In this document: in pieces, positions 45,009-64,000 of the stretch | Layout: each line of letters opens with the position of its first letter | Position numbering within the stretch: position 1 is the stretch's first letter | Assembly: GCA_016906335.1 (NCBI GenBank) | Contig: JADEYG010000001.1 | Coordinates: 1,674,001-1,738,000, forward strand | DNA length: 64,000 nt | Direction of reading: 5' to 3' | Source of the DNA: Novakomyces olei | Taxonomy: Eukaryota | Translations under genes and position numbers: made by a program | The notes under the pieces: generated by a model | Told to the model about the DNA's origin: nothing | Databases searched by the model: none | The model's input: only the letters and a program-made list of their open reading frames with translations

Positions 45009-46877
45009 CTAGTTCTTCTCCGTAGGGGAAGCCCGCTCAACGTCAACATGGCCGTTTTCCTTGCTGTAGGTATTCACGTTCTCGCCTTGTTCATAGGAGG
45101 AGGAAAGCTCCAAGCCTTCCGTCCGCTCATACCCAAAAGTTGTATGATCAACCAGGCTAGCCCTGTCCGGGAAGAAATGGCTGAGGGCGCCGTACACGAG
45201 AATACTGCTGACAAAGCCGTAGAGCCAGTCAAAAGAGTACAAGTTATTAGCGCCCGCAGAGATGTTGACCTTGCCCGGAGTGATACTGTACGCTAGTCCC
45301 GGCAAATTAGGGGCAATTGCAATGACAAAAGCAACGACGGCGCGCCAGTTAAAGCCGTAATAGTAGCGGTAGCGGCCGTGCGGGTCGTAGAGAGCGGGAA
45401 CGTCAAAGTGGCGGCGTTTGACAAAATGGTAATCAACGGCCATAATGCCGCTAAAAGGCGCAAGAAAGACGGCGTAGCCGCCCATAAAGGAGAGGAAAGT
45501 TTGGGCCGAGTTGAGGATTTCCCAGGGCACGATAACCCAGCCGCCGACGATAGCGGCAATTATACAGCCGCGAGTAATATTAATGTACTTGGGGCAGAGG
45601 ACGGTGAGATCGTTGGCAGCAGAGATGGAGTTGGCCGTGATATTGGTTCCGACTTGGGCGATGTACCAAGATAGGCCGGCAAAGAACATGGCAGCGCGGC
45701 CGCCGTGGGATCCCTGCCACTGGGAAATGATGTCGAGCGGGTTCCACATATAACTCCCATAAACGACTCTCGAGGCGGAGGTGGTGACGATGCCGAGGAC
45801 TCCGCAGACGGTAAAGATGAAGGGCAGAAAAGGCAGCTGAACATACTGGCCACGTGAGGTTTTAGCGTAGCGTGAAAAGTCTGGAATATTGCAGGCAAGA
45901 GTGGCCCAAGAGCCGGTTACGGAGGACATACAGGAGAGCCATTTCCAGGCGTAATCGCTGCCATGGACTTCGCGCGGGAGGCTGAAGAGCTCACCGCCAC
46001 CGCCGGCCTTGTGGACGATCCAGCCCATCGTGGCAATGGCCGTTACGGGAGCGGCTACGAGTTTAACGAGGAAGAGCCAGCGCAGACGCGTTGGTGGGAT
46101 AAGGAGAAGCGGGAGCTGAATGAGCCAGAACAAAAAGTAGGAGCACATGCCCATAGTAGTGATCCCGGCGCTGTCGGAGAGCCGATTGGGGATTCTGCTG
46201 TAGGAAGGCCAAATGGCAGAGAGCATGACTGTGATGCACACAGCGCCATTGGCGCTCTGGATACCGAGCCAAAACATGGCGAGAATGGCACGGGAAAAGA
46301 TGCAAAAGTAGGCAAAGTAGTAGCCAAAGCTGGAGCGTGTGATGACGGCGAAGGGGATGTCTGGACAAGTCAGCAAGTGAAAATGAAATGAAATGAAGAG
46401 GAATGAAAAGGAAAGGAAGAGGAAAGGAAATTAAAAGGAAAGGAAATGAAATGAAAGAAAATGAAATGAAATCAAAATGAAATGAAATCAAAATCAAAAT
46501 CAAAAGAAAAGGTTAAGTGGGTACGTACGCATTTTAGCGCCTATGGCGCCGTTGAGGACCATAGGAATGGCGACGCAAAAGGTGCCGACGACCATAATGG
46601 GGATAGCGTCGCGCCAGATGAGGCCGACAGATACGATAGAGGAGGCAGTTTCCCAGGTGCCGAGATTGATGGTGTCCGTGGCCCAGTAGGCCATCCAGGT
46701 GACGAGCGTCCACGTCTGGTCCTTCTCGGGCGTAGGGTCCATGTCCGGGTTGGTCCACACATCATCGGGCGCGACGGCCGACTTTTGCTTAGGCAGCTCC
46801 CAAGCCTTCATGGAGGTGAGGCGAGCCTTGACGGTCTCACCGCTCGGCAGATAACGGGTAGGGGACATTTGCGACAT
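45009..46877 (-). CDS. NCS1 nucleobase:cation symporter (Fur4/Dal4-like uracil/allantoin permease); intron 46361-46528
   Basis: WTNPDMDP, MHIPFAVITRSSFG after splicing, WLGIQS, NIPDFSRY, NITANSISAAND, VPW, DYHFVKR, NWRA. Confidence 0.92.
46378..46505. repeat. (GAAAT/GGAAA/CAAAAT)n simple repeat filling the NCS1 intron
   Basis: Directly visible. Confidence 0.85.
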
Positions 46878-46882
46878 GTAGG

Positions 46883-46979
46883 GCAATTTGGACAATTGGA
46901 CAATTGGACAATTGTTCAATTGGACAATTGAACAATCCGACAATTCCACAATTTGAACAATTCCACAATTCCACAATTC
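46883..46979. repeat. Degenerate 8-bp tandem repeat (GGACAATT/CCACAATT) just upstream of the NCS1 ATG
   Basis: About 12 CAAT(T)-core units are visible. Confidence 0.85.
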
Positions 46980-48518
46980 GAAGCTTGGGACGGATGGGCA
47001 GTTTTGTACTGACGTGTACGCTTGTAAGGATGCACTGATAAGGCCAAAAGTAGGCAATAAGAGCGACTGGTGACAGAGATATCAGGGGCTGAATATAGGT
47101 CTGGGCCTTTAGCGGCGTGGGCGCAGGCGAGTAGCGATAGCTCGATTAGGCAGAGATAAGGTCACGTGGATTCCCGATGGGGGAAAGTGCAAGCGACTGG
47201 AACGGGCGAATGAAATGGTTGGTGAACAGGCCAGGAGGGAATCCCACGCAAGCCGGAAGAGAGGGAGAAACCCACACAAGATGGAAGCAAGGTAAGAAGG
47301 AACTGGATGTGGGTTGGCTGTACCGCGTTGCTGCAGCGGTAGTGGCGAACAGCCGCATTGCCTCGTCCACGTGAGCGAACAAGTAGTCTACCGGTCGACA
47401 AGTATTCTGTAAGGAGAAAGTAGCTTTGCCGGTATTTTGCGTAATGTTGGAGGGTCCGAGTAGTGTTGCGTAGTGGTATATGTGCAATGTATACTGAAAG
47501 GGCCTAAGCTCAATATCATGTTATGATAATCTAACATTGGGCTAACCCACGGTTTATCTCCTTGTAGCGACTTAAACCACTAATTTAAAGGGATTATTAC
47601 CGAAACTTGGTGCTTTGAAAACATCACTGCTTCAGGACGCCGTTATCTATAGTTTCGCCTGTATTGCGATAGCGCGCTGCTACCTTGTTTCATTTCTACA
47701 GGGACTGGATACTTAGGTTACTTAAATCAAACATTGGTTTGGGTCCTAGCATTTACGAGTAGTATGTTTGCCGTCCACACTTGCTTGGGCTATAAAACTT
47801 GCATAGGATGAAAAGTAATGCTTGATACAGTAATTGACTCAAACAATGACGAACACTAAGATAGCCGCCCGCAGCTATCTATTGACGACTACGACACGTA
47901 GTAAAAGAATAAAAGACAAGAAATTTGAGCTTTAATAGCAAATACGAGACAATAGATAATAATAGTTCTAGTTTCAACCTTTTTCTTGCAAGGCGGAACA
48001 TCTCTCTTGTATACGATTGTTGTCCTTGTCCCCTTTGTCGAGTGATACTTCCCATGATGGGGTACAAGGGCAATAAGATTACTTGTTTATTACATATGGA
48101 AGGTTTTGTTTTCGATAAGATAAATGTTGAACTGTATTTCTGGGGAAAGTCAAGATTGACGTCTTTGGTGGTCTGAAAGTTGCGCCGAAGGAGGTTCTGC
48201 ACAAGAGGCGCAGGCCACTTTTCAGCGCCTCGGTATTGACGGCAATGGCTCGTATAGCCACACTCGTTCGCCACAATAGAGCAAGCACTGTCAAAGCTGG
48301 AGTGTTTTATTGTCGACAAGATTGCACTTCAGCTCAGTCACTACCAGTGTTGGGTGTGTGTCGCTGAGTTGGACGACTCATTGTCCCGGAGGCGACTACG
48401 GATGCCGGTCGACACAGCAGCAATTTGTTAGTAGTAAGTGTTATATGGGCATGCGTATTGTTGGAACTACACCCTACAACAGCCTACACGAACATAAAAA
48501 TCAAAATCACGTTCATAT

Positions 48519-49505
48519 TTAAGCATTGCCAGATCCTGGACCTGTCCCTGGGCGATATGAACTAATCTTATATCTGTCTATGAGATCTGTCTCAGGATCC
48601 CACCCTAACACTGAAACCGGATTCGGTCTTGTTGCGGCAACTTGATTGCCTTCAATTGTGTCACCATCGAGCGGGTCAATTTCGATATTCTGTTTTCCGT
48701 GAACATCAAAGACAATATTTCCCACGAACTTGTTTCCACGGCCTTGCTTTGTGTGATCGACTGGGTCATCTTCAGATATAATACCACTTCCTGGTGCACT
48801 AATCACCAAATTTCCTTGGACCGTGTCGCCCGATGCCCCCATGATGGCGATGCCTCTTCCGTAAGCGTTTTCAAGAGCAAAATTCTTCTCAAAAATGTTT
48901 CCCTTATCGGCCGTAGGGTCCGTTTGATAAGAATCATCGGAAAAAGAGTCATCGCCTGCTTGGTACACTTGATTAAATTCCACAACGTTGTTCTTGGACT
49001 GGTTCATAATTGCAATGCCATCAGCATTTGAGCCTTGAACCAAATTATGAATAATTTGGCTGCACTCGGAATTATCTACTCTGATCCCGTTTGAACCAGC
49101 ACCTAAAGTACAAACATGACTCACTGTTGCGCCAGAAGCGTTTTGGACCAAGATAGCAGCTGCCTCAGGCATGTTGCTTCGTGTTGGAGAGGACGCTTTA
49201 ATTACAAGTTGCTGTAGAACTGATTTAGAGCCCGACAGTCGTAAAGCACTTTGATTTGGATTTGTTGCAACCATCAAAGTGGCATATCCTGCTCCAAACA
49301 CGGTAGCATTTTCCATATTAATAGATCCAGAGTGATTGTAAGTTCCCTCTGGAATATACAGCGGACGCCTTTGGCCCGCTGCATTTTGAATTGCGCTCTG
49401 TAGCGCCGCGGTATGATCTTCTAGATTCCCTGCATTGTATGAAAGAGCATTGGAAAACTGATTAGCACTGAGAGGCTTCTTTGACGGTCCAACTCTGCTT
49501 GCCAT
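48519..49505 (-). CDS. Pectin-lyase-fold right-handed parallel beta-helix protein, intronless, no signal peptide
   Basis: D.TAALQSAI...LYIPEGTY N-cap, then stacked NGIRV, ADGIAI, GDDSFS, GRGIAI, GSGIIS coils with an Asn ladder. TATATAA lies about 70 nt upstream. Confidence 0.8.
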   Translation of the reverse strand: MASRVGPSKKPLSANQFSNALSYNAGNLEDHTAALQSAIQNAAGQRRPLYIPEGTYNHSGSINMENATVFGAGYATLMVATNPNQSALRLSGSKSVLQQLVIKASSPTRSNMPEAAAILVQNASGATVSHVCTLGAGSNGIRVDNSECSQIIHNLVQGSNADGIAIMNQSKNNVVEFNQVYQAGDDSFSDDSYQTDPTADKGNIFEKNFALENAYGRGIAIMGASGDTVQGNLVISAPGSGIISEDDPVDHTKQGRGNKFVGNIVFDVHGKQNIEIDPLDGDTIEGNQVAATRPNPVSVLGWDPETDLIDRYKISSYRPGTGPGSGNA

Positions 49506-50405
49506 TTTCGAGTCCAGAATTGACAAGATAGGTGCTTTCAAGTAAAAGCGCTTTGCTACGCTACGTCAAGGCTTATATATTCTTAAACATGCTCATCAAT
49601 GTTATCACAATCCAATACACATCCGCACCATAGACAATTTCGGGGATGAGATTTCCAGTTCATATCTGATTCTCGTAGAGCCCATGCAGGTCGTTCAAAC
49701 AAAAGTGTGCGCATTACAACGTGAAGCGAAGCAATTCGGCACTATCGGCGTTTCCTTGTGCGGTTATAAGCAGGTCGTAGTCCTCTATCTCTGCAAAAAA
49801 GTTCAAGTTCTAAAGAAACAGAGATACGGTTAGTCACGTGTTGGTCTCAATATGGCGGAACAGGACTTGACGTCGCATGATAAGAGCCATATTCTGACGA
49901 GTTTATCAATTAGTGCTTTCATTTGCCGAGCCTCGGCCGATAAATGATGATCTATTTTTCAAGCACGTCTAAATTCTTTCCTTATTTAGATGTACAATCA
50001 GGAATATTGCACTGGATACGACAGAGGCCGCACTCGATATCGGTTTCCTGTCACCCACCGGTCGCCTAGCAGCGCCCGCTGAAGTGAATTATTATATCAA
50101 ATTATACCAATTCAGAAGATCTGCAAAACACCATTTAGTGAATTTGAGCCTGTACTGTAAGCGCGTGCCATATCGACGTGATCTGTAGGCAAATTGGTGA
50201 AAGCGCAGTCTTTATTACCAATTATAGTAGTCAGTCGACGGCAGAATGCGGGTCTCAACGCAAAGCACGTGGAAAAATTGCATCTGCTTTAGTGATTTAC
50301 GAGCTTTGCAAAGACTTTACGTATTAGACCGCGCAAGTGTTTTCGAATATCGGCCGCGTTTATATAAGGACAGCGGCTTTGAAATCAAAAAAGTATCTCA
50401 ACATT

Positions 50406-50975
50406 ATGGGCGACGCACCGGTAACAATAATCATAACAAACAAATTTCCCTACACAATCAAAGTGGGAGAGTTTGTGAGTCAAAACGCTAATCCCGTCAA
50501 TACAGTCAATATTCCGCCAGGACAGGAGAGATACCTTGGATACTGGTTCCAGCAGAGCGGATATGTCGCAGTGGCAGATGCAAACGGAAATTTTCAATGG
50601 AACGCTAGTCGTCTCGAGTATAATGCAAACGGCCAAGGCCTGACGTCAATTGATGTGAGCTACATTGATGGAAGAAACTGCGCAATGTCCATAGATGATG
50701 GGCAGGGAAAGCGTAAAGGTGATCATAGTTGCATTGCAAATCAGGCACCAGGTGATTCTGTTTTGCACGACAGCGGAGGTCGTCCTACAATTGCGGGATG
50801 GTACGATGGAAATTCAAGCGCTGGAAAAGATGGTGAGGCATACATGAGAAGAGTGTTGCCAGCTGGATCAGCCTATCTTAGACCAAATGACGACACTCTA
50901 CCTTTTTCGCAAAACCCTATGACTATGTCGATGGATCCCAGCAAGCATTATTATGTTGATTTTGGGCCCGCGTAA
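50406..50975 (+). CDS. Small thaumatin/osmotin-like-fold protein, Cys-poor, no signal peptide
   Basis: ITNKFPYTI, SRLEY, DVSYIDGRNCAM and AYLRPNDD parallel the TLP motifs N.C.YT, TLAEF, YDVSLVDG.N.P and AYSY..DD. TATA at about 50361. Confidence 0.6.
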   Translation: MGDAPVTIIITNKFPYTIKVGEFVSQNANPVNTVNIPPGQERYLGYWFQQSGYVAVADANGNFQWNASRLEYNANGQGLTSIDVSYIDGRNCAMSIDDGQGKRKGDHSCIANQAPGDSVLHDSGGRPTIAGWYDGNSSAGKDGEAYMRRVLPAGSAYLRPNDDTLPFSQNPMTMSMDPSKHYYVDFGPA

Positions 50976-51269
50976 AGTCAAACTATTCGTACTGCTTAAT
51001 TAATTTTATTGTTTCTAGTTTAGTGGACCACTGTGGCATCGCAGTTCTAAAGAATGAACGACTAGACAATACCTTTTTAAAACCAGTCCAGCATACAACA
51101 TAAGCACATTTAATAAGTCATTTCCTGACTTCATCGCACTACGCATGTGTTATGGAATATATATCTGAAAATATGAACTCAAAAAATCATTGACTCCAAA
51201 CTTCAAGTAAAAACGCGCATCTGGGGCATACAAGCCATATGATATTCTCATGTCCACTCTGGTACAAAG

Positions 51270-52085
51270 CTATATATTGATGTAGGTGTCGCCGAGAGAT
51301 GTATTGACCCCCGGACCAGCGAGTAGCGACGTGAAATGAGGATCTGGGCTGAGTTTACCCGTGAACCAGGCATATCGGGCAACATCATTTCTGTCTTCAC
51401 AAATCGAAACCATTTCTCTCATTTGACCAATTTGCTTTGCTTCGCTTGTAATTTGCGCACCGTCATTCTGGCTATGCCAGTTTGCAAATTCAGTGACCCA
51501 GAAGGCTTTTCCATACTTTTTGAGCCTATCTAACTGTGCGCTGAGCCCATAGTCATACCAATGGAACCCTAAATAGTCAATTTGAGGATGCCTGCCACCA
51601 TGAGCTGAAGAATAGGCTTGAATGAAAGCATCAAGCCACTTAATGGGGTCTTCATAGCCTTTCATGGTCCCCCATGTAATCTGAGGACCAACAATTTTAA
51701 CGTTGGCGCGTGCAGCCACATCTTCATATCTAGGCCAGAAGCTGGCAGCGCTTTGAGGGGTGGCATTCGATTGACCAGTCAAGTTTGGCTCGTTCAAGAC
51801 CAAAATGTACTTTGTAGAAGGATTGTCTCGTAGTAGACCCAAAACAGCATCTTCGTCAAAATTATTATCCCACAACATAGGAATAAAGTCCACATCTTCA
51901 GAAGCTGAAAGCGCCATAGATACACCTTCATCGGGTGACAGTCCCCAGTTGTAATACCAAGATATTCCAGGCGACAGAGCATTGAGGTCGCCGCCAAATT
52001 TCAGGTTATACGCGAGACCCTTTTTAGGGCTTTTGTGTGGCATAGTCAAGAGGTCAGTAGCACCAGATTTCAGTTTAATTGCCAT
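51270..52085 (-). CDS. GH128 beta-1,3-glucanase catalytic core, intronless, no signal peptide (start may be the second ATG at 52043)
   Basis: KKGLAY, SWYYNWG, FIPMLW, LNEPN (acid/base), GFHWY, WVTEFA (nucleophile), RYAWF. Confidence 0.88.
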   Translation of the reverse strand: MAIKLKSGATDLLTMPHKSPKKGLAYNLKFGGDLNALSPGISWYYNWGLSPDEGVSMALSASEDVDFIPMLWDNNFDEDAVLGLLRDNPSTKYILVLNEPNLTGQSNATPQSAASFWPRYEDVAARANVKIVGPQITWGTMKGYEDPIKWLDAFIQAYSSAHGGRHPQIDYLGFHWYDYGLSAQLDRLKKYGKAFWVTEFANWHSQNDGAQITSEAKQIGQMREMVSICEDRNDVARYAWFTGKLSPDPHFTSLLAGPGVNTSLGDTYINI

Positions 52086-52529
52086 TTTGTAGTCTATACC
52101 TTTTATATAGTTATTCGCAGCCTAGGAGGAGAATGCGTGCTGTCGTGCGTTATCAACCAGCTCGTAGATCAAAGAGGCGCCTTTTCAGGGTATTTTGGAA
52201 ACGATAAAACTGATACAAACTGCGCGTGAGATAAGCAGGCTACAGCCTCGGTAAATATAATTTAATCAGGACCAATTCAGACCGCTGATCCATCATCCAG
52301 TTTTCGTCCTGTACTAAATACAGAAATTTTGAACGAAGGACCGAAGCAGCCATTGTCCTAGAATCTTGGTTAATCAATGGGAGTTTGGTTTCACAATTTT
52401 GCATCCGCCTTATCTATTCTCGTCCTACTCCCTATCCCGCACCATATATTCATCTACCTACTCGTAACTGGAAACGGCAAACTTGGTCACCGAGCTTTGA
52501 TTTTTATCAGCCATTTCCAAATTGAAGGG

Positions 52530-53285
52530 ATTATTAGCTTTGTTTACGATATTTGGAACGCCTACTGCTGGAGCCCTCGGAGGTCGAGGGCTTGGAGCCA
52601 GCACACTTGAGCAAGCCAGGGCCATGATCCAATAGACCCGTGCGCTTACACCACACGTGATTCATGCAAATGTATTTCGCCATAAACGCTAGCGCTGCCC
52701 GCGGATGACGAGATTGCCAGCGAAGTGCTATTCGTTTTTCAACCGAGTCTATGAGACTCGGCCCTTTAAATCCCACGAAACTGCTCCGGGATATACGAGT
52801 TTCCGTGACAGCCAAGCAATGTTACAGGTCCTCCTGCAAACCCAGCCCACGCAGCACCATCTTACCATAATTGCAGTGGGCAGTATCATGGACGGCCAAA
52901 GAATTAAAGCTGTATTGGAATTAGGCGCTAGCGGTGCTCAATTAGGAACCGCTTTTGTGCTGTGTCCCGAGTCTGCTGCTGACGTGGGATATCGGCAATT
53001 GCTGCAAAGCCCACGAGCTATACCACCCGGCTGACGGGTACTATTTCGGTCAAACCGGCACGAGCAATTGTTGACAATTTTATAAGGCAACCCGAGGTAT
53101 TAGAGATTAAAACGCCGGTGATCTCTCGGGCGTATTCTGCATAAAAGGCGCTTTATGCGGCTGCTAAAGCTCGAGAAAGTTATGAGTATGGGGCTTATCG
53201 GGCGGGACAGTCGACTCCTTCAGCCCGCACTCTACATGCTGCTGAACTCGTTGCAAAATTGCATTCTGAACTTGCACACACTTGA
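52530..53285 (+). pseudogene. Decayed nitronate monooxygenase (2-nitropropane dioxygenase family)
   Basis: Fragments across frames: RALTPHVIHANVFRH, YTSFRDSQAMLQVLL, IIAVGSIMDG...GAQLGTAFVLCPES, ISVKPARAI, KALYAAAK...YRAGQ...AAELV. Frameshift near 53020, in-frame TAA at 53142, central region missing. Confidence 0.8.
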
Positions 53286-53595: not shown

Positions 53596-54465
53596 TCATA
53601 ATTCATCGCGGAATATGCGAGTAAGCAGAGGCATAATATAGTGTATGATGTATAGTCCACCGTTCGGACTAGCCGTACCCACAAACTCCAATTGGTTCCT
53701 GGGTGGCAATTTTATGGCAGATTCCTGGGCGATTGATTCGCTGCCAGCAAAACCGTTACCGTGGAGTACAAAAGCTAAATGAATAGAATCGTGGGTCTCA
53801 ATGACACATTTTTGGCCTTCTGTTATGTGTATTATTTCAACGGCCAATTCACGCTCCGAAAAAACGCCTAATGGCTTCCTAAAGGTCCCAGGAAACTCCG
53901 TTATCTCTTTCCATCCAAAAGCTTCTGGTCTCATAATAACGATAGCGTTATACCGCCCAAGAGGGTACGTCAGTTTGCGTTTATTATAATACTCCCAGAG
54001 AGCCTGATAACCGTCAAGACTTTCACCATTATCTCGCACATATTTTCCGGCCTCGAACTTCCCGTATTTTTGTAACTCTTCCTGGCCTTTTGAGAGCTGT
54101 TCATGAGCTAAGAAGCCCTGGCCGCTTGCGCCTCCAGTTTGCAGTACTAAGACAATCCGTTCCCCGGGCCCGTCATCTTGAGGCCCATACTTTACACCCT
54201 CGGGATGGTAGCTTAACCAGCCCTGGCGCAACAAGCCATCAGGGCCAGGAAGCAGAGATATATCGCCCTTGTAAGCATACCGAAACTGATCAAAATTGTG
54301 GCTATGCGTTGGCGAATAAAACTCTTCCTGGCGAGCAAGAACGAACAGAAAGTTTTCTGGTGTCCCCTCGTCACCCTTAAACAACGTTTTGAAGGCTAAA
54401 CCACTGCCTCGATGTTTAAGCCCAAAGCGCTCAAAGTCTATCCCTGCTCCGTGGACAATCTCCAT
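53596..54465 (-). CDS. Uncharacterised RmlC-like cupin protein, intronless
   Basis: Cupin-like metal motif SPTHSHNFDQFRY..KG followed by YHPEGVKYGPQ and LVLQTGGASGQGF. Confidence 0.7.
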   Translation of the reverse strand: MEIVHGAGIDFERFGLKHRGSGLAFKTLFKGDEGTPENFLFVLARQEEFYSPTHSHNFDQFRYAYKGDISLLPGPDGLLRQGWLSYHPEGVKYGPQDDGPGERIVLVLQTGGASGQGFLAHEQLSKGQEELQKYGKFEAGKYVRDNGESLDGYQALWEYYNKRKLTYPLGRYNAIVIMRPEAFGWKEITEFPGTFRKPLGVFSERELAVEIIHITEGQKCVIETHDSIHLAFVLHGNGFAGSESIAQESAIKLPPRNQLEFVGTASPNGGLYIIHYIMPLLTRIFRDEL

Positions 54466-55141
54466 TCAGGGCAAGAATAAGAGGACAAAAATACTAAAGG
54501 AGCGGCATGTAAGCTTCATTCAGATTCGAGACACGGACAAAGATCCATTGTTTGCTCATTGCCTATTTTATCACTTTAGCTTTAGTGCGATCTTCCGGGA
54601 AGGGAGAAGAGGCGCTATATATATATTACGTAATTCTTATGCGGGCTTTATTCTTGCCGTCGGCCCTTTAAGATGCTTATCTTAGAAACCCTAACCCTAA
54701 GCGTGATGACACTTGAATAAACGCCGACCCCAGCAAATCTCCGCGAGAAAATTCACGAGACAGTGGAAGATTGCTTAAATGGAATATTACCATAACATTA
54801 AAGCTTTAAATTTACGGTTACTTGAACGGTTTATCTATTTCAACGTCCCCATATTTCTTCTCCCTTTATTGTTGTTCGAACTGGAACAAAATTATGTTCC
54901 TACGAAAAGACGTGCTGGGCCAAAGCCGCGCGCAGATAGAGCGCCGACGGTAATATGCATTTAGGATGAGCAACGCACTAGGGCACATGTTCCTGCGGGT
55001 TGAAGTGCCTAAAACATCGATTTTCAGTCTGTTACTACCGTACCCATACTATTACCTGTTTCCAGGACTGGCATCGAAACAAATCAGCGTAACACTCTTT
55101 GTAGAGATTTAATTATATACTGTGTAATGGGCGAACTGAAT

Positions 55142-55954
55142 TCATACATCTTCATCAGTTATACCATCAACTCCGGGCCAGTCTTGCGTATCTTTATTAG
55201 CCCATTGCGCCACTAATTTAACAATCTCGGCAACCTTATCGATTTCCTCCAACTTCATCCCAACTCTTTTCAAGCCACGAAGATGCCAAAGTGTAGGGTT
55301 ATGCAAACCTTGGCACATAATGCCAGGCACAACGACAAGCTCGGTTTCCAAGCTGTTGAGTATCTGTAAGTCCGAGAGAAAAAGACCATAGATTACGTTT
55401 TTTTCCAACCAATCAAAACTGTCTGCATGACTACCAAATTGTTCAAAAATTGCTGGTAGAGTATGTTGGTATATTGACTGAAGGAACTTGGTCCCCCGCT
55501 CTTCTATCGCATCGTCTAATTTGTAGTCTTTCCTGTGCGATAAGCATTTCGTCTGGAGACCATTCAAATATTTAATTAGCAAAAAGCATAATTTCATACT
55601 GATGAAAGTCGGCTTCTACATCTTCAGCGCGTTCGACTTTTGCCAGCGAAGCGACTGCCTCTATCACCAACGGAATGCCGACAATGGTCCATATTTTGAA
55701 AAATAGTTCACGAAAGCGTCGAGAGAGCCGCCGTCGTTCTTCCGTATTTTGGAATTCCGTTTGCTTCGTTAAATATTGGTATAAGTCGGCAATATTTGCG
55801 GACCGCGAACAAGCAATTAATGAGACTGCCTGAATTTAATTAATACAATAAATGCCGGCTTGACATGAACTTACGACAGAATAAACCAAGCATCAGAGGC
55901 TATTGACTCCGGCGAATGCGCTTTAAGCTGGTCAAAAAGATCGGTCAAAGACAT
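55142..55954 (-). CDS. AhpD/carboxymuconolactone-decarboxylase-like all-helical protein, 3 exons
   Basis: Spliced MSLTDLFDQL..WFILS|AVSLIAC..RFRELFFKIWTIVGIP..|..RGTKFLQSIY..IYGLFLSD..LETELVV..WHLRGLKRVG. Confidence 0.7.
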
Positions 55955-56209
55955 AATGAAACTTGATAATTGTCTATTCTGGACTTTGCGTATGTTTCAC
56001 ACCTTTTGTAAACGTTTTATGGATCCTGAAATATAAAATGGACTAAAATTTAATATATTGTACACATCCTCTTCAAACATTTTTAGCCGAGATGCTGCTG
56101 TTGGCGATCCAGAGATTCTAAAAATAGGAAAAATACACTGATTCAACGAGCTTAATCCTTTCCACTGCGCAGAGATTATGTTACTGAAGTGAAACGCAAC
56201 TAAATGCCT

Positions 56210-56231
56210 CGGAATAACATGAATTATTCCG
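56210..56231. promoter_or_regulatory. Perfect inverted repeat CGGAATAA-N6-TTATTCCG in the divergent AhpD-like/deaminase promoter
   Basis: Seen directly. CGG...CCG geometry is typical of Zn2Cys6 sites; function is inferred. Confidence 0.5.
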
Positions 56232-56671
56232 CGACTTTAATCATTTGTTAGGGTCAGCTTTTTTGAGATCATATACTACTATATGACGGTAACATAAACC
56301 TTCAAATTGCATATAGCTTAATCACATTCTCTCAATTTTTAATTTACTCTGTTTCGCCTAAATTGGGTCCAGCGCCATGATAAGCATGATGCACCAACAC
56401 CAACGGTCGTCGTGCATAATGCCCGCAGCATCGATAAAAATACTTTAATTACTTATATGTCGGACAAAATCTATATTTCTACAAATATTAGTCCAAAGGA
56501 TTAGGGTTTATGTCCGCTACTAGCTCTGCTTAAAATGAATCCTACATTTTTAACCAAAACCTTAAGAGTCTATCACGACCAAAATTCAGTTTTTGCACAC
56601 GAAAACTTGTAACGTGGGATGCATTTAATATTTATATAGCTTGGATACCCATTTCCCCCCAAAACGAAATT

Positions 56672-57721
56672 ATGACTGTCGCCGAAATAGAGCGCCTTGA
56701 GCGTATTTGTCATGCGATACCAAAAGTGGAACTTCATTGCCATTTGTTGGGAACGTTGCGCCGAACAACTTTTCGATCTTTAAATAGAAAAGCCGGAAAT
56801 CCTCTTAGTGATACCGAGATTGATCAGTTTTACACTAGAGACGAAAAGCCAATTGGGGTTTTAAGGATTTTGCGAGCACTGGAATCAGATTTGATAACAG
56901 ACCCATCAGATCTTTGCAGAATAACTGAAGAATACCTCGAGGACGCTCAGGCACATAATGTGTTCTATACAGAGTTTTTTTGGAATCCAACTGGTTCAGT
57001 ACGCGCGGGTTGGTTTTCATATGATCAAGGTCAAAAAGCCATCACTGACGCTATTCGCAAAAGCAAAACCAGAATCGGAATTTCTGGCCGATTAATACCT
57101 GCCATTGATCGGGAGGCCGATCCAGAGGAGGCAATAAAACTTGTTAACTGGATGATACAATACCGGGATCCTCTAGTCATTGGATTAGGCATTGATTACA
57201 ATGAGGTTAATCATCCACCTGATCTTTTTGTGGAAGCTTACAAACGTGCGCGAACTGCAGGCTTTTTTACTACAGCTCATGCAGGAGAGTTTGGTTCTCC
57301 CTGGACAAACATTGAAACAGCTCTCACTCAACTTGAAGTAAGCAGAGTCGATCATGGGTATACTGTAATTGATAACCCAGACCTTGTCCAGCACTGTTTG
57401 GATAATGATATTATATTCACAGTGGTTCCAACTAATTCGTTTTACCTTCGAACATTAGATCCTTCTGTTTGGGCACAACGACATCCTATTCGTGAGATGG
57501 TTCGTCTCGGTCTAAGAGTACATCCAAACACAGATGATCCGACTTATCATCGGACAACGCCAACAAAGTCGTGGCTTATGATGCTTACTGAGTTCAATTG
57601 CTCTGTCGCTGATCTCAAGCAATTTTGTTTAAACGGAATCGACGGCGCTTGGGTACCTTTGCGAACAAAAAATATTTGGCAACAACAATGCTTGAAATTT
57701 TTTGATGATTTAGAGATATAA
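56672..57721 (+). CDS. Adenosine/adenine deaminase-family metallohydrolase, intronless
   Basis: PKVELHCHLLG, GIDYNE, TAHAGE, RVDHG, NTDDP metal and catalytic motifs. Confidence 0.9.
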   Translation: MTVAEIERLERICHAIPKVELHCHLLGTLRRTTFRSLNRKAGNPLSDTEIDQFYTRDEKPIGVLRILRALESDLITDPSDLCRITEEYLEDAQAHNVFYTEFFWNPTGSVRAGWFSYDQGQKAITDAIRKSKTRIGISGRLIPAIDREADPEEAIKLVNWMIQYRDPLVIGLGIDYNEVNHPPDLFVEAYKRARTAGFFTTAHAGEFGSPWTNIETALTQLEVSRVDHGYTVIDNPDLVQHCLDNDIIFTVVPTNSFYLRTLDPSVWAQRHPIREMVRLGLRVHPNTDDPTYHRTTPTKSWLMMLTEFNCSVADLKQFCLNGIDGAWVPLRTKNIWQQQCLKFFDDLEI

Positions 57722-57893
57722 TCCCATCGGGCAGAAGCCGTCTCGTGCATTTAGTATATATTGATTAAAGCGCAGTGGGAAAAATTGTACGGATTTGTTT
57801 ACATACGTGTCTTATTATATATATATTTCATTTACACAACAGAAATTCAGCTTCAATTAATCGCCACAAGAAATGAAATTAGATTGTTGCCCA

Positions 57894-59414
57894 CTAGAGC
57901 TTGTACCTGAACTCTGGGTCTTGCTTGTCTGTCAAGTCAGAAGCGTTCGGAGGCAGAGAGCTAGATGATGCAACCTTTCTCCGATTTTCCCACATCAGAT
58001 AACATCTCAGAACCGCACCAAAGAGAATAGTTAAACAAAAACAAATAATCATAGCCTTGAAAGAGGTCTCATAGCGTGGAGCTTCAGAATTTCTGAAAAG
58101 CTGAGGCGCACCAATATTGCAAGCACTAGACTGTTAGAAATACGCGATATATATAAAAAGACAAATGATTTGAACTTCTAAACAAAATGTAAATTTCAGA
58201 ACAGCTTACCAGTATATTATAAACATCAATGCCGTGGCAGAGTTTCGCTTCGTGGCACCAATAAAGTTCCCTCCGAGAATAGCAAGTACACTGGGAAACG
58301 TTGCTGGCTGCACCTGCAAGAGATAGTATCCAAACAGTCGCAGTCCTTTAGCATGAGACGGAACTCTATAAATTATGATTGCCCCGGCAATAGGCAAGAT
58401 TACAGAGGCAATAATGACAAGACATCGCATATTTTTCCATTTACTGGCAACAAATCCCGCGCTAACAATTGCAATCCATGTAATAACAGAAGCAGGAACC
58501 ATCAGCAATGTAGTCTCAATTGATGTATAGCCAAAGCCATCAACAATGATAAAACCATATGATAGAATAGCGCCATTAGGCAAGATGGAAAGAACAGTGA
58601 TGCCAGCGAGCAGCCAAAACTGGATATCAGTAACGCATTCCAACAGCTGAGACCAGTTCCATTCGCTTTTAATGGGCTCCTTTACTTGAACACGAGCATG
58701 AATTTCCTTCTCTTCCGCCGTTAAAAAGCGAGCTGTTTGTGGGCTGTCCGGAAGCAAAAAAAAGATCAAAATTCCCCAGGCTACAGTAACGCAGCCTTCC
58801 ACAATAAAAATGTACCTCCAAGACGAGGTGCCACCATTAATATGACCTAATCCAAAGGCAACAAAACTGGATACGATCCCGCCAAAATCGTTTCCTGCCC
58901 ACCAAATACCCGTGCGCAAAGGTTGCTGGCGAGAAGACCACCATGTAGATGAAATAAGAACGAATATAGGACTAATTCCGGATTCCAAAAGTCCCGAGAA
59001 GAATCGAGCGGCTAACAGTCCGGAGTAAGAATGGCAGGCGGAGGTTGCCGCTAAGACTACACCCCACAAAACCAAAAGTGTACCTGTTAACTTTCCAATA
59101 GGCAAGACTTGCACGAGACGAGCAATTGGCATATTTCCCAGTAAAAATCCAAAGTAAAAAATTGCCGATACCCAGGAATAAGCTTGCCCGTGTAGATTAT
59201 TGTCAGTGCGCAAGTCAAAAACTGCCGCCGCACTGAGCGAAAGTTTGTCCATAAATTGTAACGAATAGGTGAGGAAAAGAAGTGGTAATAAGTTAAGGTC
59301 AATTTTTCTTGTTATAATCTTCCATTTCTGAGCATCAACTGATGAAACGTCGCCTTCAACCTCGTTCTCGCGCAGTTTGTCGTCGACTACGATATCAATC
59401 GATTTAGTCGTCAT
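57894..59414 (-). CDS. MFS Dal5/allantoate-permease-like transporter; one intron near 58128-58209
   Basis: RKIDLNLLP, LQFMDK, YSWVSAIFYFG, ARFFSG..E, QQPLRTGIW, WRYIF..EG, LPDSP. Last exon reads CNIGAPQLF...DLTDKQDPEFRYKL*. Confidence 0.9.
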
Positions 59415-59827
59415 TTTGAGACAGAACACCAAGAGGGTAACGAGCCGAAAAATCAATGAATGATCAAAAATAAAGTAAACACTAGAAGTCCTTGACTATC
59501 CTCCGTCTCAAATCCTAAATCGATCCCGGCAATTTGTTGTTCGACAGACTTTAAAATAATCATGGCATGATAAGCCAATTTATATGTGTTATGGTCATCT
59601 TTATTTATTAGACGGAAAATATCTTATCGCTCGGAAAATTATTGGATTTACCGAAACGTGGGCTATTTATCCGGAAGTTATCCAAAAACTTAACCCTGGC
59701 CCTGCCTGATAAGTCAAGGTTCTATGCCTACAAAGTTTAGGACACATAGGAAAAAGGCACATAAACTAATTATACAATAGAGCTGAAGTGTATACCAATG
59801 CTATAGACAATTCTTAGATAAATATGT

Positions 59828-61344
59828 TTAAGAAACAAGGCCAGGATACTTTGCACGCAGGGAATCTATGATCAAATTATCCGCTGGAATCGAGCTTCTA
59901 ATGCCGTCCCAGAGCTCTTGGGCCAACACGCCCAATGTGTGGCTAGCATGCGTAGTGTTATCACTTACTGTGTTGAAATAGTGGCAGACCTTCCGTATTC
60001 GATCGTCTAAATTGAAATTTTTGCAGATCTGATGAGAGTGATAGTTCATCCGAATATGCATGAGAACACAGAGCGCATAAAACAAGATGATGAAATAATT
60101 TCTGGTGAATGCGAGTTGGTAACGCTGTCGGTTAGGAAAATCCTGCATGGCTAGAGCGATGAGACGCACTGCATGAGTGCACACAAAGTTCAGGTCCCGT
60201 TTAATATCAGTGAAACAATTGCGAAAGGGTCGAAAAAGTAAAAGCTGTGATAAATAATATGGTATTTCCACCATAAAGCCCATTTGCTGGGCAAAGAGGT
60301 ACTGCCATTCTTCACGCCACTGTTCCAAATCATTGTAATGCAAGCAATCGAAATTTTTTGCACTTAAATGCCGAAATAAAATGCTGTACAATGCCACTTC
60401 TGCAATAGTTCGGCCGTCTCGCGCAGTCGACAGAACGGAATTAAAAATACACAATCCGTAGTTTAAGTCATCATCAGGAATATTGCAAGGTCTACCAGAT
60501 GTCACTGAAGCCCTAATGTGTACAAGAACAAGTCTGTTCCAAGCACGAAACCGTTTCACAGCAACGCTCTGTTCCGGGATAGAAAGTGAAAATATATCGA
60601 CGACATTGCGTTCGCGAAGCCAATCGTTAGAAATACAGCAGTTTATGCCGTGGGCACTAATTAGCCATGAATCGATATTGACAGTGGGCATCTCGTATGG
60701 GCAAGATGAGAGAAGCACAAACATTAGCACTTGCTCAAATGACTGCTCCAAAGAAAAGACTGTTGCCCCCATCGACTCTATAATCTTTTTTTCCAAACGT
60801 TTGATATTGTCGCCGTCACGTATTTCCACGGGCAGGGATTGCATACCGATCCAGAGGCACAAATACAGGAGCAAGCTACTTGCTTCAAGTTCACGCCAAG
60901 TTACGCTGCTGATATCGCCCAGTAAATTTGAATTATACTCCTCAAAACTGAAGGTAAATAAAAACTTTTGTTAAAGCATAAATAATCCAAAGACAAACCT
61001 CTGCAAAGCATGAGCAATCAGGCTTTTGGAAAGACTCAAACCTGGAGCGAAGCCGATTTCCCGGATGCTCGATGATTTGTTTACCATAATAGACGAGGTG
61101 TTTAAATCCACAGCTGTACTATCTGTTAGACCATCCAACTATACTGAACCTACCCTTGTCCCTGATTGAAAGGCAAATTCAAGAACGAGCACGCAATTTC
61201 CTTTGTAGCGCACCTCCGGCATGTCATTTTAGTGGATTCCTCCATCCAAAGCCATTCACATTTTACTTTTGAGGCCTGACAAGCTTGGCATGCCGTGTTT
61301 GGTCGTCTTTTAAGTTTCGACTTTGAGATGCGTGAGCCAAACAT
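59828..61344 (-). CDS. Zn(II)2Cys6 transcription factor, multi-exon
   Basis: ACQACQASKVKC...CRRCATKEIAC binuclear cluster at 61150-61344, joined to a downstream fungal TF middle-homology-like region (RAWNRLVLVH...SGRPC). Confidence 0.8.
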
Positions 61345-61702
61345 CTTTGGGCATTGTTGCGCTAAGCTGCAACTCAATCAACAAGCTTAACAGAATGCCT
61401 CGTAAAATAATACTAAAGCTCGACGTAATGCAAATTCAGTCGCGCGTACTTTAAATTTAGTGTTCAACATTCAGGGTTAGTTAGGGTTAGGTTATCGTTC
61501 TCCCTCGCAAGCCGATATAATATAAACAGCTATTGTAATAGCGTAATAGCATTATAACACCAGTCAGGGTTAGTCAGGGTAAAGCCGAAAATGCGAAGGG
61601 CCGAAGTCCGAAACGTCGGTGAATTCGGTCCGATTTTACGTGTACACTATATTATAGACGTGGAGGCACAAAAGTACCAAGTCAGTCAAGGACAATTTAA
61701 TA

Positions 61703-62662
61703 ATGGGTTTCGTGTATTCTCAGCTGTTTGTAACGCCGCCATATCCTACGACCCTGTTTACAGGAAAGACCGTCATAGTCACCGGTTCAAATGTTGGTTT
61801 AGGAAAAGAAGCTGCACGCCATTTTGCGCGGCTGAAGGCATCTCGCGTGATTCTGGCTGTTCGCAATCTGAGTGCAGGAGAGGCGGCCAAAAAAGACATT
61901 GAGCAGTCTACTGACTGTGGCAGTGATATTGTGCAAGTCTGGCATCTTGATCTAGCCTCTTACGACTCTGTCAAGGCATTTGCGAAAAAGGTGCAAGACA
62001 AGCTTCCACGTCTGGATGCCGTGGTCGAGAACGCGGGAATTGCACCAACAAAATACGACGTAGCTGAAGGCCATGAGCGTACTATCACAGTGAACGTGAT
62101 TAGTACATTCCTGTTGGCTTTACTATTGATTCCTAAGCTTAAAGCGACAGCGTCTCAGTTCAATACTTTGCCACACTTGACAATTGTGTCTAGCGAAGTT
62201 CATGGCTGGGCCAAATTCCCTGAGCGCTCGGCCAAGAACATTTTCGCTGCTCTTGACAATAGAGATGCAGATATGGGAGACCGGTATCAGTTGAGTAAAT
62301 TGCTAGAAGTATTGGTTGTCCGGCAACTGACTCCCAAACTCGCCGGTACCGGAATTGTTTTGAACATGCTTAACCCTGGCTTATGCCACTCCCAACTCGC
62401 ACGCGATTTCACCGGTGTCACTTTACATGTTTTAAAGTTTTTCTTGGCTCGGACAACTGAGGTTGGAAGCCGAACACTAGTTGCTGCCGCCTCGGCTGGG
62501 CAAGAATCGAATGGGAAATACATGTGTGATAGCGTGGTTAAAGACGATAGTCTTTCAAACTTTGTTACTAGTGACGAAGGTAAAGACGTCTCCGTAAAGG
62601 TGTGGGACGAATTGCTTGAAATCTTAGAAAAGATTCAGCCGGGGATCAGTGAGTCGTACTAG
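61703..62662 (+). CDS. Short-chain dehydrogenase/reductase (retinol dehydrogenase/WWOX-like), intronless
   Basis: VTGSNVGLG, LDLASYDSV, ENAG, VSSEVH, YQLSK catalytic motif, NPGLCHS. Confidence 0.92.
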   Translation: MGFVYSQLFVTPPYPTTLFTGKTVIVTGSNVGLGKEAARHFARLKASRVILAVRNLSAGEAAKKDIEQSTDCGSDIVQVWHLDLASYDSVKAFAKKVQDKLPRLDAVVENAGIAPTKYDVAEGHERTITVNVISTFLLALLLIPKLKATASQFNTLPHLTIVSSEVHGWAKFPERSAKNIFAALDNRDADMGDRYQLSKLLEVLVVRQLTPKLAGTGIVLNMLNPGLCHSQLARDFTGVTLHVLKFFLARTTEVGSRTLVAAASAGQESNGKYMCDSVVKDDSLSNFVTSDEGKDVSVKVWDELLEILEKIQPGISESY

Positions 62663-62905
62663 ATATAAAGCTCGATGATTTATACATACATTCAGCGCTT
62701 TTGAATGTTGTAATTAGAGCTGGGATTAGAGTACAAGATTGTTAGAGCCTTTCCTTATTATACATACGATAATTATGTTTGAAAAGACCTTTTTAGTAGA
62801 AAAAAAAAATGTTGATATTGCCATTGCCAAAGTCAGTGTAACAGATACAATCATCGGCCTCTATCGATTATACTTTTCTTATTGTCTATTTTTGAACACG
62901 TTTAC

Positions 62906-64000
62906 TTATAAGGACAAATTTGGCTGTGTGTTTATGACTCGGAGCAGTGTGCGCATGTGATGCTTGCCCCCTCGGTTTGCACGATTGTAAAAAGGCACAA
63001 AGCGTAAATCGAATTTAGACGACCAAGTTCGTGGCTGGGTGGAAAATGGCTTAACGTTATCGAGCCCGAAAATAGGATCAGGCTTGCTAGGTAGCAGACT
63101 CCGTCCGCCACCTATAGCTCTGATAAAAATTATTCCAGTTTCCTCATCACGCTCGGTCGCAAGCTCTGAAGCAATATCAAGACCCGTCAGCCGGTAATCT
63201 TGGTCAGCGTCATCAGTCGGATTATCAACGTCTTCGATGCAATACACGAGAGGCCCGTAAGCGATACCAACCACGTTTTGACCAGTTTCAGCAGGCGGGT
63301 AAATCAGTCGTGGTCGCAACTCTAGTTCAATCGTAATGCTGCCCTGGGCATTGGCAATTTGCAGATAGCCACCATCGGGTAAAAGCGTTGCTTGAGACTC
63401 GGCGTTATCTATCTCCACACAAAACTTGTTTCGAGCCCACAGTGGGATTCTCACCCGTAGCTCAACGACACAATTTTCAACTTGCTGCTCAACATTGATC
63501 TCAACACGGCCCGAGTAAGGGTAATCCGATATGATGGATACATGCGCCAGACGTGTCCGTATGTCCATACTCGCAAACGCGTGAATACGAACAATGCTAT
63601 CATTTTCCTTTGTGTCCCAAAAGTATCCGGAAATAATGGCAAGGGTGCGCAGTAAATTGGGCGGGCAGCAGGCACACATGAACCAGGAATGCCGTTCACA
63701 GGGCTCTCCAGGCCCAGAAGCAAGAGGATTACAATAGCTGAAAGCTTGGCCAGAGCAATCATAACTGCCCAGCACTGTATTGTACAAGGCAAGTTCCAGT
63801 ATATCTCCATACTCACAGTGCTCTTGAATTTGGAAAAGTCGCTGTGCCACCATCAGTACACCAATACTAGCACAAGTCTCGGCGTAACATCCTCCTTCTG
63901 CGTTAGACTGGGGTAGGTAATAATCGAGGTGAAATCCCTCCCATTTCGATATCGAGCCAATGCCGCCGGTAACATACATCTTCTTCCCCACCATATTTCC
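62906..64000 (-). CDS. GH127 beta-L-arabinofuranosidase-like protein, 5'-truncated by the window edge
   Basis: MYVTGGIGS, YAETCASIG, ELALYN, YCNPL, CACCPPN, LRVRIP.W, GPLVYCIE, VPFY.RANRG. Confidence 0.88.
   Translation of the reverse strand, partial: GNMVGKKMYVTGGIGSISKWEGFHLDYYLPQSNAEGGCYAETCASIGVLMVAQRLFQIQEHCEYGDILELALYNTVLGSYDCSGQAFSYCNPLASGPGEPCERHSWFMCACCPPNLLRTLAIISGYFWDTKENDSIVRIHAFASMDIRTRLAHVSIISDYPYSGRVEINVEQQVENCVVELRVRIPLWARNKFCVEIDNAESQATLLPDGGYLQIANAQGSITIELELRPRLIYPPAETGQNVVGIAYGPLVYCIEDVDNPTDDADQDYRLTGLDIASELATERDEETGIIFIRAIGGGRSLLPSKPDPIFGLDNVKPFSTQPRTWSSKFDLRFVPFYNRANRGGKHHMRTLLRVINTQPNLSL

Follow-up and report, generated by a model that had tools for sequence, protein, structure and literature searches.

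A probable subtelomeric patchwork of accessory metabolic genes in Novakomyces olei, with a deaminase gene acquired from proteobacteria

The window analysed here is a stretch of 64,000 nucleotides from the yeast-like fungus Novakomyces olei (C1:1674001-1738000, where C1 stands for contig JADEYG010000001.1), in which five contiguous genes for a cupin, an AhpD-like protein, a deaminase, a major facilitator superfamily (MFS) transporter and a Zn2Cys6 transcription factor occupy positions 53596 to 61344. The genome comprises 14.3 Mb in 15 contigs. Its uL3 protein matches PDB 8esq, a fission yeast structure, with 716 bits against 650 for the second-best entry, and the host is thus probably a member of Taphrinomycotina. 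C1 is 1,761,951 bases long and carries telomere-like repeats at its terminus, which puts the five genes at a distance of 27-34 kb from a chromosome end. A first-pass annotation had taken them for a self-regulated catabolic cluster that scavenges nitrogen from an amino-heterocycle or modified purine. Our analysis favours, with a probability of about 0.6, a patchwork near the telomere in which accessory metabolic genes of mixed origins have come together, with a deaminase acquired from proteobacteria as its working core, rather than one conserved pathway.

All five coding regions were located at the annotated positions, together with an adjoining short-chain dehydrogenase (SDR) gene. The segment begins with an intronless bicupin gene of an uncharacterised family (53596..54465, minus strand, 289 aa), followed by the gene similar to AhpD and to carboxymuconolactone decarboxylases (CMD) on the same strand (55954-55142) and by the intronless deaminase gene on the plus strand (56672..57721, 349 aa). 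The MFS gene (57894..59414, minus strand, about 478 aa) is intact, with two exons and an in-frame splice join across the intron 58209-58126. The Zn2Cys6 gene (59828..61344, minus strand, about 476 aa) has three exons, separated by introns at 60998-60948 and 61153-61119, the latter a predicted intron of 35 bases. As had been annotated, the SDR gene (61703..62662, plus strand, 319 aa, PF00106) sits head to head with the Zn2Cys6 gene, and its position is all that would assign it to the cluster. The picture of five contiguous genes thus held for the coding regions as such and gave way at the AhpD-like gene, whose first exon is without an in-frame GT-AG join.

The deaminase belongs to the adenosine deaminase (ADA) family. 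It matches PF00962 with 166.5 bits against a cut-off of 27 (E 1e-48), and Foldseek aligned it to TIM-barrel ADA structures with TM-scores of 0.83-0.96. The best structure was PDB 4GXW (E 3e-131, 55% identity, TM-score 0.96, rmsd 1.6), a cog1816 amidohydrolase (EFI-505188) from Burkholderia ambifaria whose entry title names no substrate. The motifs HLLG, FWNPTG, IDYxE, HAGEFG and NTDDP are common to the two proteins, while the window gene differs in being fungal and in having no adjoining hydrolase or NCS2 gene. Residues H22, H24, H203, E206, H228, D288 and D289 are intact and were invariant in 21 alignment rows. On TIGR01430, the NCBIfam adenosine deaminase equivalog, the protein scored 207.2 bits, narrowly below the cut-off of 216.55.

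The fold and the catalytic zinc residues are also those of the fungal and bacterial adenine deaminase Aah1 (PDB 3ou8, 3rys). However, identity to Aah1-type enzymes is only about 26-29%, compared with 55-63% to proteobacterial proteins, and the specificity motifs HxEG, FFDPQ and LDSxE of Aah1 are replaced by HLLG, FWNPT and IDYNE. At the position after the second histidine, 4GXW-type deaminases have Leu, Phe or Tyr, where ADA and Aah1 have an acidic residue with a functional role. The genome encodes an AMP deaminase and a separate, intron-bearing Aah1-type gene at C1:618.6 kb, and the approximately unbiased (AU) test rejected a grouping of the window deaminase with this Aah1 (p 1.6e-90). The enzyme is therefore distinct from the housekeeping Aah1, as its assignment to an accessory cluster had presupposed.

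The gene was horizontally acquired from proteobacteria. All organism-named homologues among the best 120 of 2595 were betaproteobacterial, with identities of 56-63% overall, and trees of 81 and 25 rows nested the enzyme within the bacterial 4GXW subfamily, with a support of 99 in the Shimodaira-Hasegawa-like approximate likelihood ratio test (SH-aLRT). The gene is intronless on a contig with intron-bearing fungal neighbours. Its GC content at third codon positions (GC3) is 0.33, whereas the total GC of the bacterial deaminase loci is 56-72%, and contigs from an independent study span all 30 bins of the region, which together argue for an old transfer and not for contamination. The literature searched, which was poor in subscription journals, yielded no paper on the function of 4GXW, on a hydrolase-deaminase pairing or on such a gene in Taphrinomycotina, and the accessible part of PMC6281700 gave no active-site detail. 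A related case is cited in PMC2459174, namely a horizontally acquired, Burkholderia-related ADA gene in Dekkera (Brettanomyces) bruxellensis (Woolfit et al. 2007). This is likewise a Burkholderia-related ADA-family transfer into a yeast, in a host from a different subphylum than the window fungus, and judged by its description, not its sequence, the Dekkera gene likely falls into the same subfamily as the window deaminase. Transfer of a Burkholderia-like deaminase into another yeast is thus already published, and the window gene adds a further case.

The genomic context of the bacterial relatives points to nucleoside or nucleobase scavenging. We collected 86 bacterial deaminase loci (80 from metagenomes, the best of 373 confirmed matches, as well as four genomes and two plasmids) and based the context counts on the 47 of them that extend for 4 kb or more on each side of the gene. 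An IU-family nucleoside hydrolase lay within 5 kb of the deaminase in 31 of these 47 and an NCS2 permease in 12; when loci were clustered at 90% identity, the hydrolase was found in most members of 13 out of 23 clusters. Three layouts recurred, in the orders porin-ABC-hydrolase-deaminase, porin-hydrolase-NCS2-deaminase and deaminase-TctC with or without the hydrolase. Scanned with the deaminase as the sole query, the named bacterial genomes yielded one weak match of no relevance.

Further support for this pairing came from a profile-free search of 1.84 billion representatives, which recovered P0279, a protein of 679 aa known from two contigs, wherein a yeast Urh1-like nucleoside hydrolase is fused to a 4GXW-type deaminase. 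Its N-terminal half is closest to the uridine ribohydrolase PDB 8rih (175 bits, the next match scoring 120) and nearer to the window host's own fungal hydrolase than to bacterial hydrolases. The fusion hence supports the deaminase-hydrolase pairing independently of the bacterial loci. Our homologue searches covered 0.55-1.75 times the query length, and further fusions may lie outside this range. The window deaminase and P0279 are 51% identical and group together (SH-aLRT 97-99), and the pair survives Dayhoff recoding; a low-GC amino-acid bias is common to both. We do not claim a single fungal origin for the two, given 11 shared rare residues compared with 10 in the best long-branch bacterial control, the low identity and the common bias.

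By analogy with the ADA family, zinc held by H22, H24, H203 and D288 would activate a water molecule and E206 would pass a proton, so that an amino or alkylamino group on a heterocyclic ring carbon would leave as ammonia or an amine. Because the bacterial genes are linked to IU-family hydrolases and to nucleobase or ABC importers, the substrate would be a base or nucleoside left over from degraded nucleic acids. We lean slightly towards a non-standard purine, with N6-alkyl, 2-substituted and oxidised forms of adenine as examples. Plain adenosine or adenine seems a rather improbable substrate, and the replacement of the motifs common to Aah1, 3ou8 and 3rys makes plain adenine less likely; an aminopyrimidine is more doubtful still, and a compound outside these classes would come as a considerable surprise. 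A precedent is described in PMC13296781, where the cog1816 enzyme Patl2390 (group 3, cytokinin deaminase) takes N6-substituted adenines and not adenine or adenosine; no orthology is implied. The product of the window enzyme would feed into the general salvage or breakdown routes of the host via hydrolases encoded elsewhere, and the genome does contain two PF01156 nucleoside hydrolase loci away from the deaminase. Of the modified-purine nitrogen scavenging proposed by the first-pass annotation, the substrate class fits the bacterial context, while the five-gene pathway around it found no support.

Indeed, no conserved linkage of the window genes was seen elsewhere wherever it could be tested. 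None of the 86 bacterial deaminase loci contained a cupin or AhpD-like profile match, and a nucleoside hydrolase, NCS2 permease or deaminase was present in none of the 11 bacterial cupin loci, one of which was unannotated. In Talaromyces islandicus and T. proteolyticus, the two checkable species, the contig listed for the cupin gene differs in length from that of the AhpD-like gene. Across 301 genomes of one order, the cupin occurred in five, the deaminase in four and both in one. The absence of cross-linkage and a probably broken AhpD-like gene speak against a single five-gene pathway with ring opening by the cupin, and the locus shows how little can be concluded about a pathway from an importer, a regulator and enzymes lying side by side near the end of a fungal chromosome. 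TctC genes, which occur near bacterial cupins as well as near Variovorax-type deaminases, were considered as a link between the two and rejected because they are so numerous in these bacteria, with several per locus.

The regulatory features gave a similar picture. The five GATAAG/CTTATC hexamers on which nitrogen control had been proposed are all present. Taken together, the four promoters hold 5 such boxes against 1.27 expected (P 0.008, 2000 shuffles). This excess comes from the region upstream of the MFS gene (59569..59713), with three boxes at 59569, 59623 and 59708 against 0.29 expected (P 0.006). The cupin upstream region (CTTATC, 54676..54681) and the interval between the AhpD-like gene and the deaminase (GATAAG, 56379..56384) carry one box each, at chance level (0.4 expected, P 0.34), and the promoter between the Zn2Cys6 factor and the SDR has none. 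As a mark of the whole cluster, the GATA boxes are therefore not confirmed; the intergenic background amounts to 18 sites in 22.9 kb of the window, these five included. No CGG-containing 7- to 10-mer was common to the four promoters, although short degenerate sites would escape this search, and the search for shared motifs ended at chance, the shared 8-mers being only telomere-like or AT-rich. Telomere-like boxes occur at 54692, 59691, 61473, 61483 and 61566, hence in three of the four promoters and doubled in the interval between the factor and the SDR; the window holds 18 such heptamers, and their sharing among promoters was not above chance.

The Zn2Cys6 factor itself appears sound, with a PF00172 match, six intact cysteines, clean in-frame joins and a Fungal_trans-like body in Atlas. 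The MFS protein, labelled Dal5-like in the first-pass annotation, matches PF07690 (MFS_1), and its assignment goes no further than this family. Since this family has 36 matches in the genome, many of them near contig ends, an MFS neighbour is unremarkable. From their position, there is about an even chance that the GATA-rich MFS gene may feed the deaminase and that the Zn2Cys6 factor may control it. A permease-type gene about 10 kb from the deaminase (45009-47081), which we take to be an NCS1-like nucleobase permease, has three GATA boxes within 1.5 kb upstream (47011-48518) and is a rival candidate for the importer.

The AhpD-like region has no Pfam match of its own. Its homologues are Pezizomycotina proteins named carboxymuconolactone decarboxylase-like (18 matches), and a full-length profile match (probability 97%) ties it to the PF02627 protein that the genome encodes on C2. 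Tblastn of five fungal homologues combined with splice-pair enumeration delineated three exons on the minus strand: exon 1 (55875..55954), exon 2 (55600..55829, open, 35-39% to homologues) and exon 3 (55142..55532, open, 45-50%), with a predicted intron between exons 2 and 3 at 55599-55533. Exons 2 and 3 were covered by all five homologues and exon 1 by three. Among all GT/GC-AG pairs enumerated, none joins exon 1 from the ATG at 55954 in frame to exon 2 by GT-AG, the consensus donor (55874) and acceptor being one base out of frame. The frame could be restored only by non-consensus GC donors, by a start at the internal ATG 55893 combined with use of the next acceptor, or by far-upstream ATGs with introns of at least about 190 bases. 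A short-read contig crosses the junction without a gap; it belongs to run X1, from which the assembly itself may derive. None of the runs lists an indel at this place. The gene thus probably carries a recent frameshift and is dead. Compared with the host's PF02627 protein, presumably a Pxp2-like member of the carboxymuconolactone decarboxylase family, the window gene is a profile-matching relative from a separate subfamily, whose named relatives are Pezizomycotina only and whose copy here is out of frame.

The identity of the cupin, for which structure prediction had been recommended, was upheld by an AlphaFold model of the 53596-54465 product (pLDDT 93) with cupin fold matches, which make it a confident bicupin. 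Pfam returned only a weak Cupin_7 match below the cut-off, and sequence searches of the PDB with the cupin gave no useful match. The family has no name, spans fungi and bacteria (535 matches) and is single-copy in the host genome; in the tree, the protein is nested among Pezizomycotina proteins, themselves within bacterial ones. H54, H56, Q60, Y86, E89 and Y93 of the N-terminal barrel were invariant in 64 of 64 rows, which suggests that they form a metal site. ChrR-like and DUF861/ureidoglycine aminohydrolase bicupins (3o14, 1sfn, 2qdr, 4e2q) share the fold (Z 20.4-22.4, rmsd 2.6-3.3 over 205-221 residues) but only 12-16% identity, and the window protein has a Tyr at the second cupin motif, where a His is usual. 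The fold search distinguished no single family, with scores close to those of unrelated bicupins.

In the 11 bacterial loci, neighbours of the cupin were TctC binders (6/11), divergent HpcH-type aldolases (4/11, three of them in close rhizobial kin), lactonases and acid dehydrogenases, and an organic acid or lactone is the more likely substrate. The rhizobial loci (L011, L127 and L129), in which the cupin is divergent from an HpcH aldolase and lies beside lactonase, tartrate dehydrogenase and L-threonate genes, suggest sugar-acid or ascorbate-derived substrates. Cleavage of ascorbate-like enediols to threonate, a reaction whose enzyme we presume to be an orphan, was considered and set aside: no paper on it was found, and the proposal draws on one lineage, the Rhizobium threonate genes.

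Part of the window has a decayed second copy. Window 56331..63639 recurs on contig C4 (C4:364373-365500, L113) in four pieces of 94-97% identity, a relic cut to 1.1 kb by deletions of about 4.0, 1.5 and 0.6 kb. Its deaminase part contains two one-base indels that shift the frame, along with 6 replacement and 3 silent changes. The run contigs also carry a second set of letters, which was considered as an allele. Depth does not differ between the skipped parts and their surroundings, and together with the match to C4 this identifies the second set as the paralogous relic. A 48-base match to window 51005-51051 adjoins the relic. At about 52530-53230, the window carries a broken nitronate monooxygenase gene, with pieces in several frames and 50-66% identity to bacterial proteins over short stretches. 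Three intronless genes at 48519-52121 may possibly be further bacterial transfers. One encodes a beta-helix protein with 28% identity to Burkholderia/Cupriavidus, another (50409-50975) a 188-aa protein without a Pfam match, and the third a GH128-like catalytic core that is 58-61% identical to proteins of Eleftheria, Deinococcus and Cupriavidus. On the telomere-ward side, a GH127 beta-L-arabinofuranosidase-like gene (62906-64000 and L114:1-999) is followed by an amino-acid permease.

How the segment as a whole should be read depends on what these parts add up to. A newly assembled self-regulated cluster, in which the MFS protein imports an amino-heterocycle, the deaminase strips its nitrogen, the cupin opens or hydrolyses the ring product and Zn2Cys6 and GATA factors control all, would explain the tight packing, the head-to-head AhpD-like and deaminase genes and the three GATA boxes at the MFS gene. 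Gene clusters do assemble at fungal subtelomeres, ureidoglycine aminohydrolase folds are among the near matches of the cupin, and one bacterial genome encodes both cupin and deaminase. We nevertheless regard it as unlikely, in view of the missing cross-linkage in the 86 and 11 bacterial loci, cupin neighbours that are carboxylate binders and aldolases, an AhpD-like gene out of frame, promoters without a common CGG motif and cupin fold matches that amount to ties at 12-16% identity. Even less convincing is the simpler idea of a plain adenosine deaminase, which would allow a yeast-like fungus whose deamination is otherwise confined to free adenine to convert adenosine directly into inosine, with hydrolysis then yielding hypoxanthine. 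The hydrolase linkage and the P0279 fusion fit such a nucleoside route, databases label the family adenosine deaminase, and the Dekkera gene is called ADA in PMC2459174. Yet family names are automatic, the NCBIfam cut-off is missed (207 versus 216.55 bits), and the residue after the second histidine, to which we ascribe a role in ADA and Aah1, is not acidic. That the entire segment is nothing but subtelomeric cargo in decay, without a present-day function, appears highly improbable: the AhpD-like and nitronate monooxygenase genes are broken and a relic duplicate lies on C4, but the deaminase, cupin, MFS, factor and SDR genes keep full frames and conserved residues despite GC3 at host levels, and the window deaminase has no frameshift where the C4 copy acquired two within 4% divergence.

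Several observations also weigh against the patchwork with its scavenging deaminase, as we favour it. Fungal synteny was checked in two species and for the cupin and AhpD-like genes only. The one genome of the 301 with both cupin and deaminase (G257), on different contigs, was also the chosen centre of that search. The trees are quick searches, and one 50-row LG tree puts the fungal pair beside, not within, the betaproteobacterial core, so that the trees single out no donor genus. As for the substrate, 16 of the 47 long bacterial loci are without a hydrolase within 5 kb, no hydrolase adjoins the fungal deaminase, and the bacterial context need not apply to a freshly assembled fungal cluster. 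The linked hydrolases score best against the pyrimidine-preferring RihA and Urh1, a poor fit to a purine substrate, and in one Novosphingobium plasmid locus (L007:6354-13028) the hydrolase-NCS2-deaminase genes continue straight into further genes that we take to be rut-like pyrimidine degradation genes. Lastly, with DUF861/ureidoglycine aminohydrolase structures (Z 19.6-21.3) among its closest folds, the cupin may have a role in ureide metabolism.

Knowledge of how microbes recycle modified bases left over from RNA and DNA is still incomplete. Against this background, the structural-genomics orphan 4GXW gains a concrete setting: its bacterial relatives sit in a conserved operon with hydrolase and permease genes, one protein fuses a hydrolase to this type of deaminase, and the fungal copy is intact and lies next to a potential importer. 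Tentatively, and as a possibility we would not yet bet on, the 4GXW subfamily may be an undescribed modified-nucleobase deaminase that is paired with an IU hydrolase in bacteria, reached ascomycete yeasts in two subphyla, regained a hydrolase partner in one of them by fusion to Urh1 and, in the window, is being built into a new telomere-proximal module of importer, regulator and enzymes. If this were true, the grouping of the window enzyme with P0279 would mean one fungal entry, followed by fungus-to-fungus transfer or wide loss.

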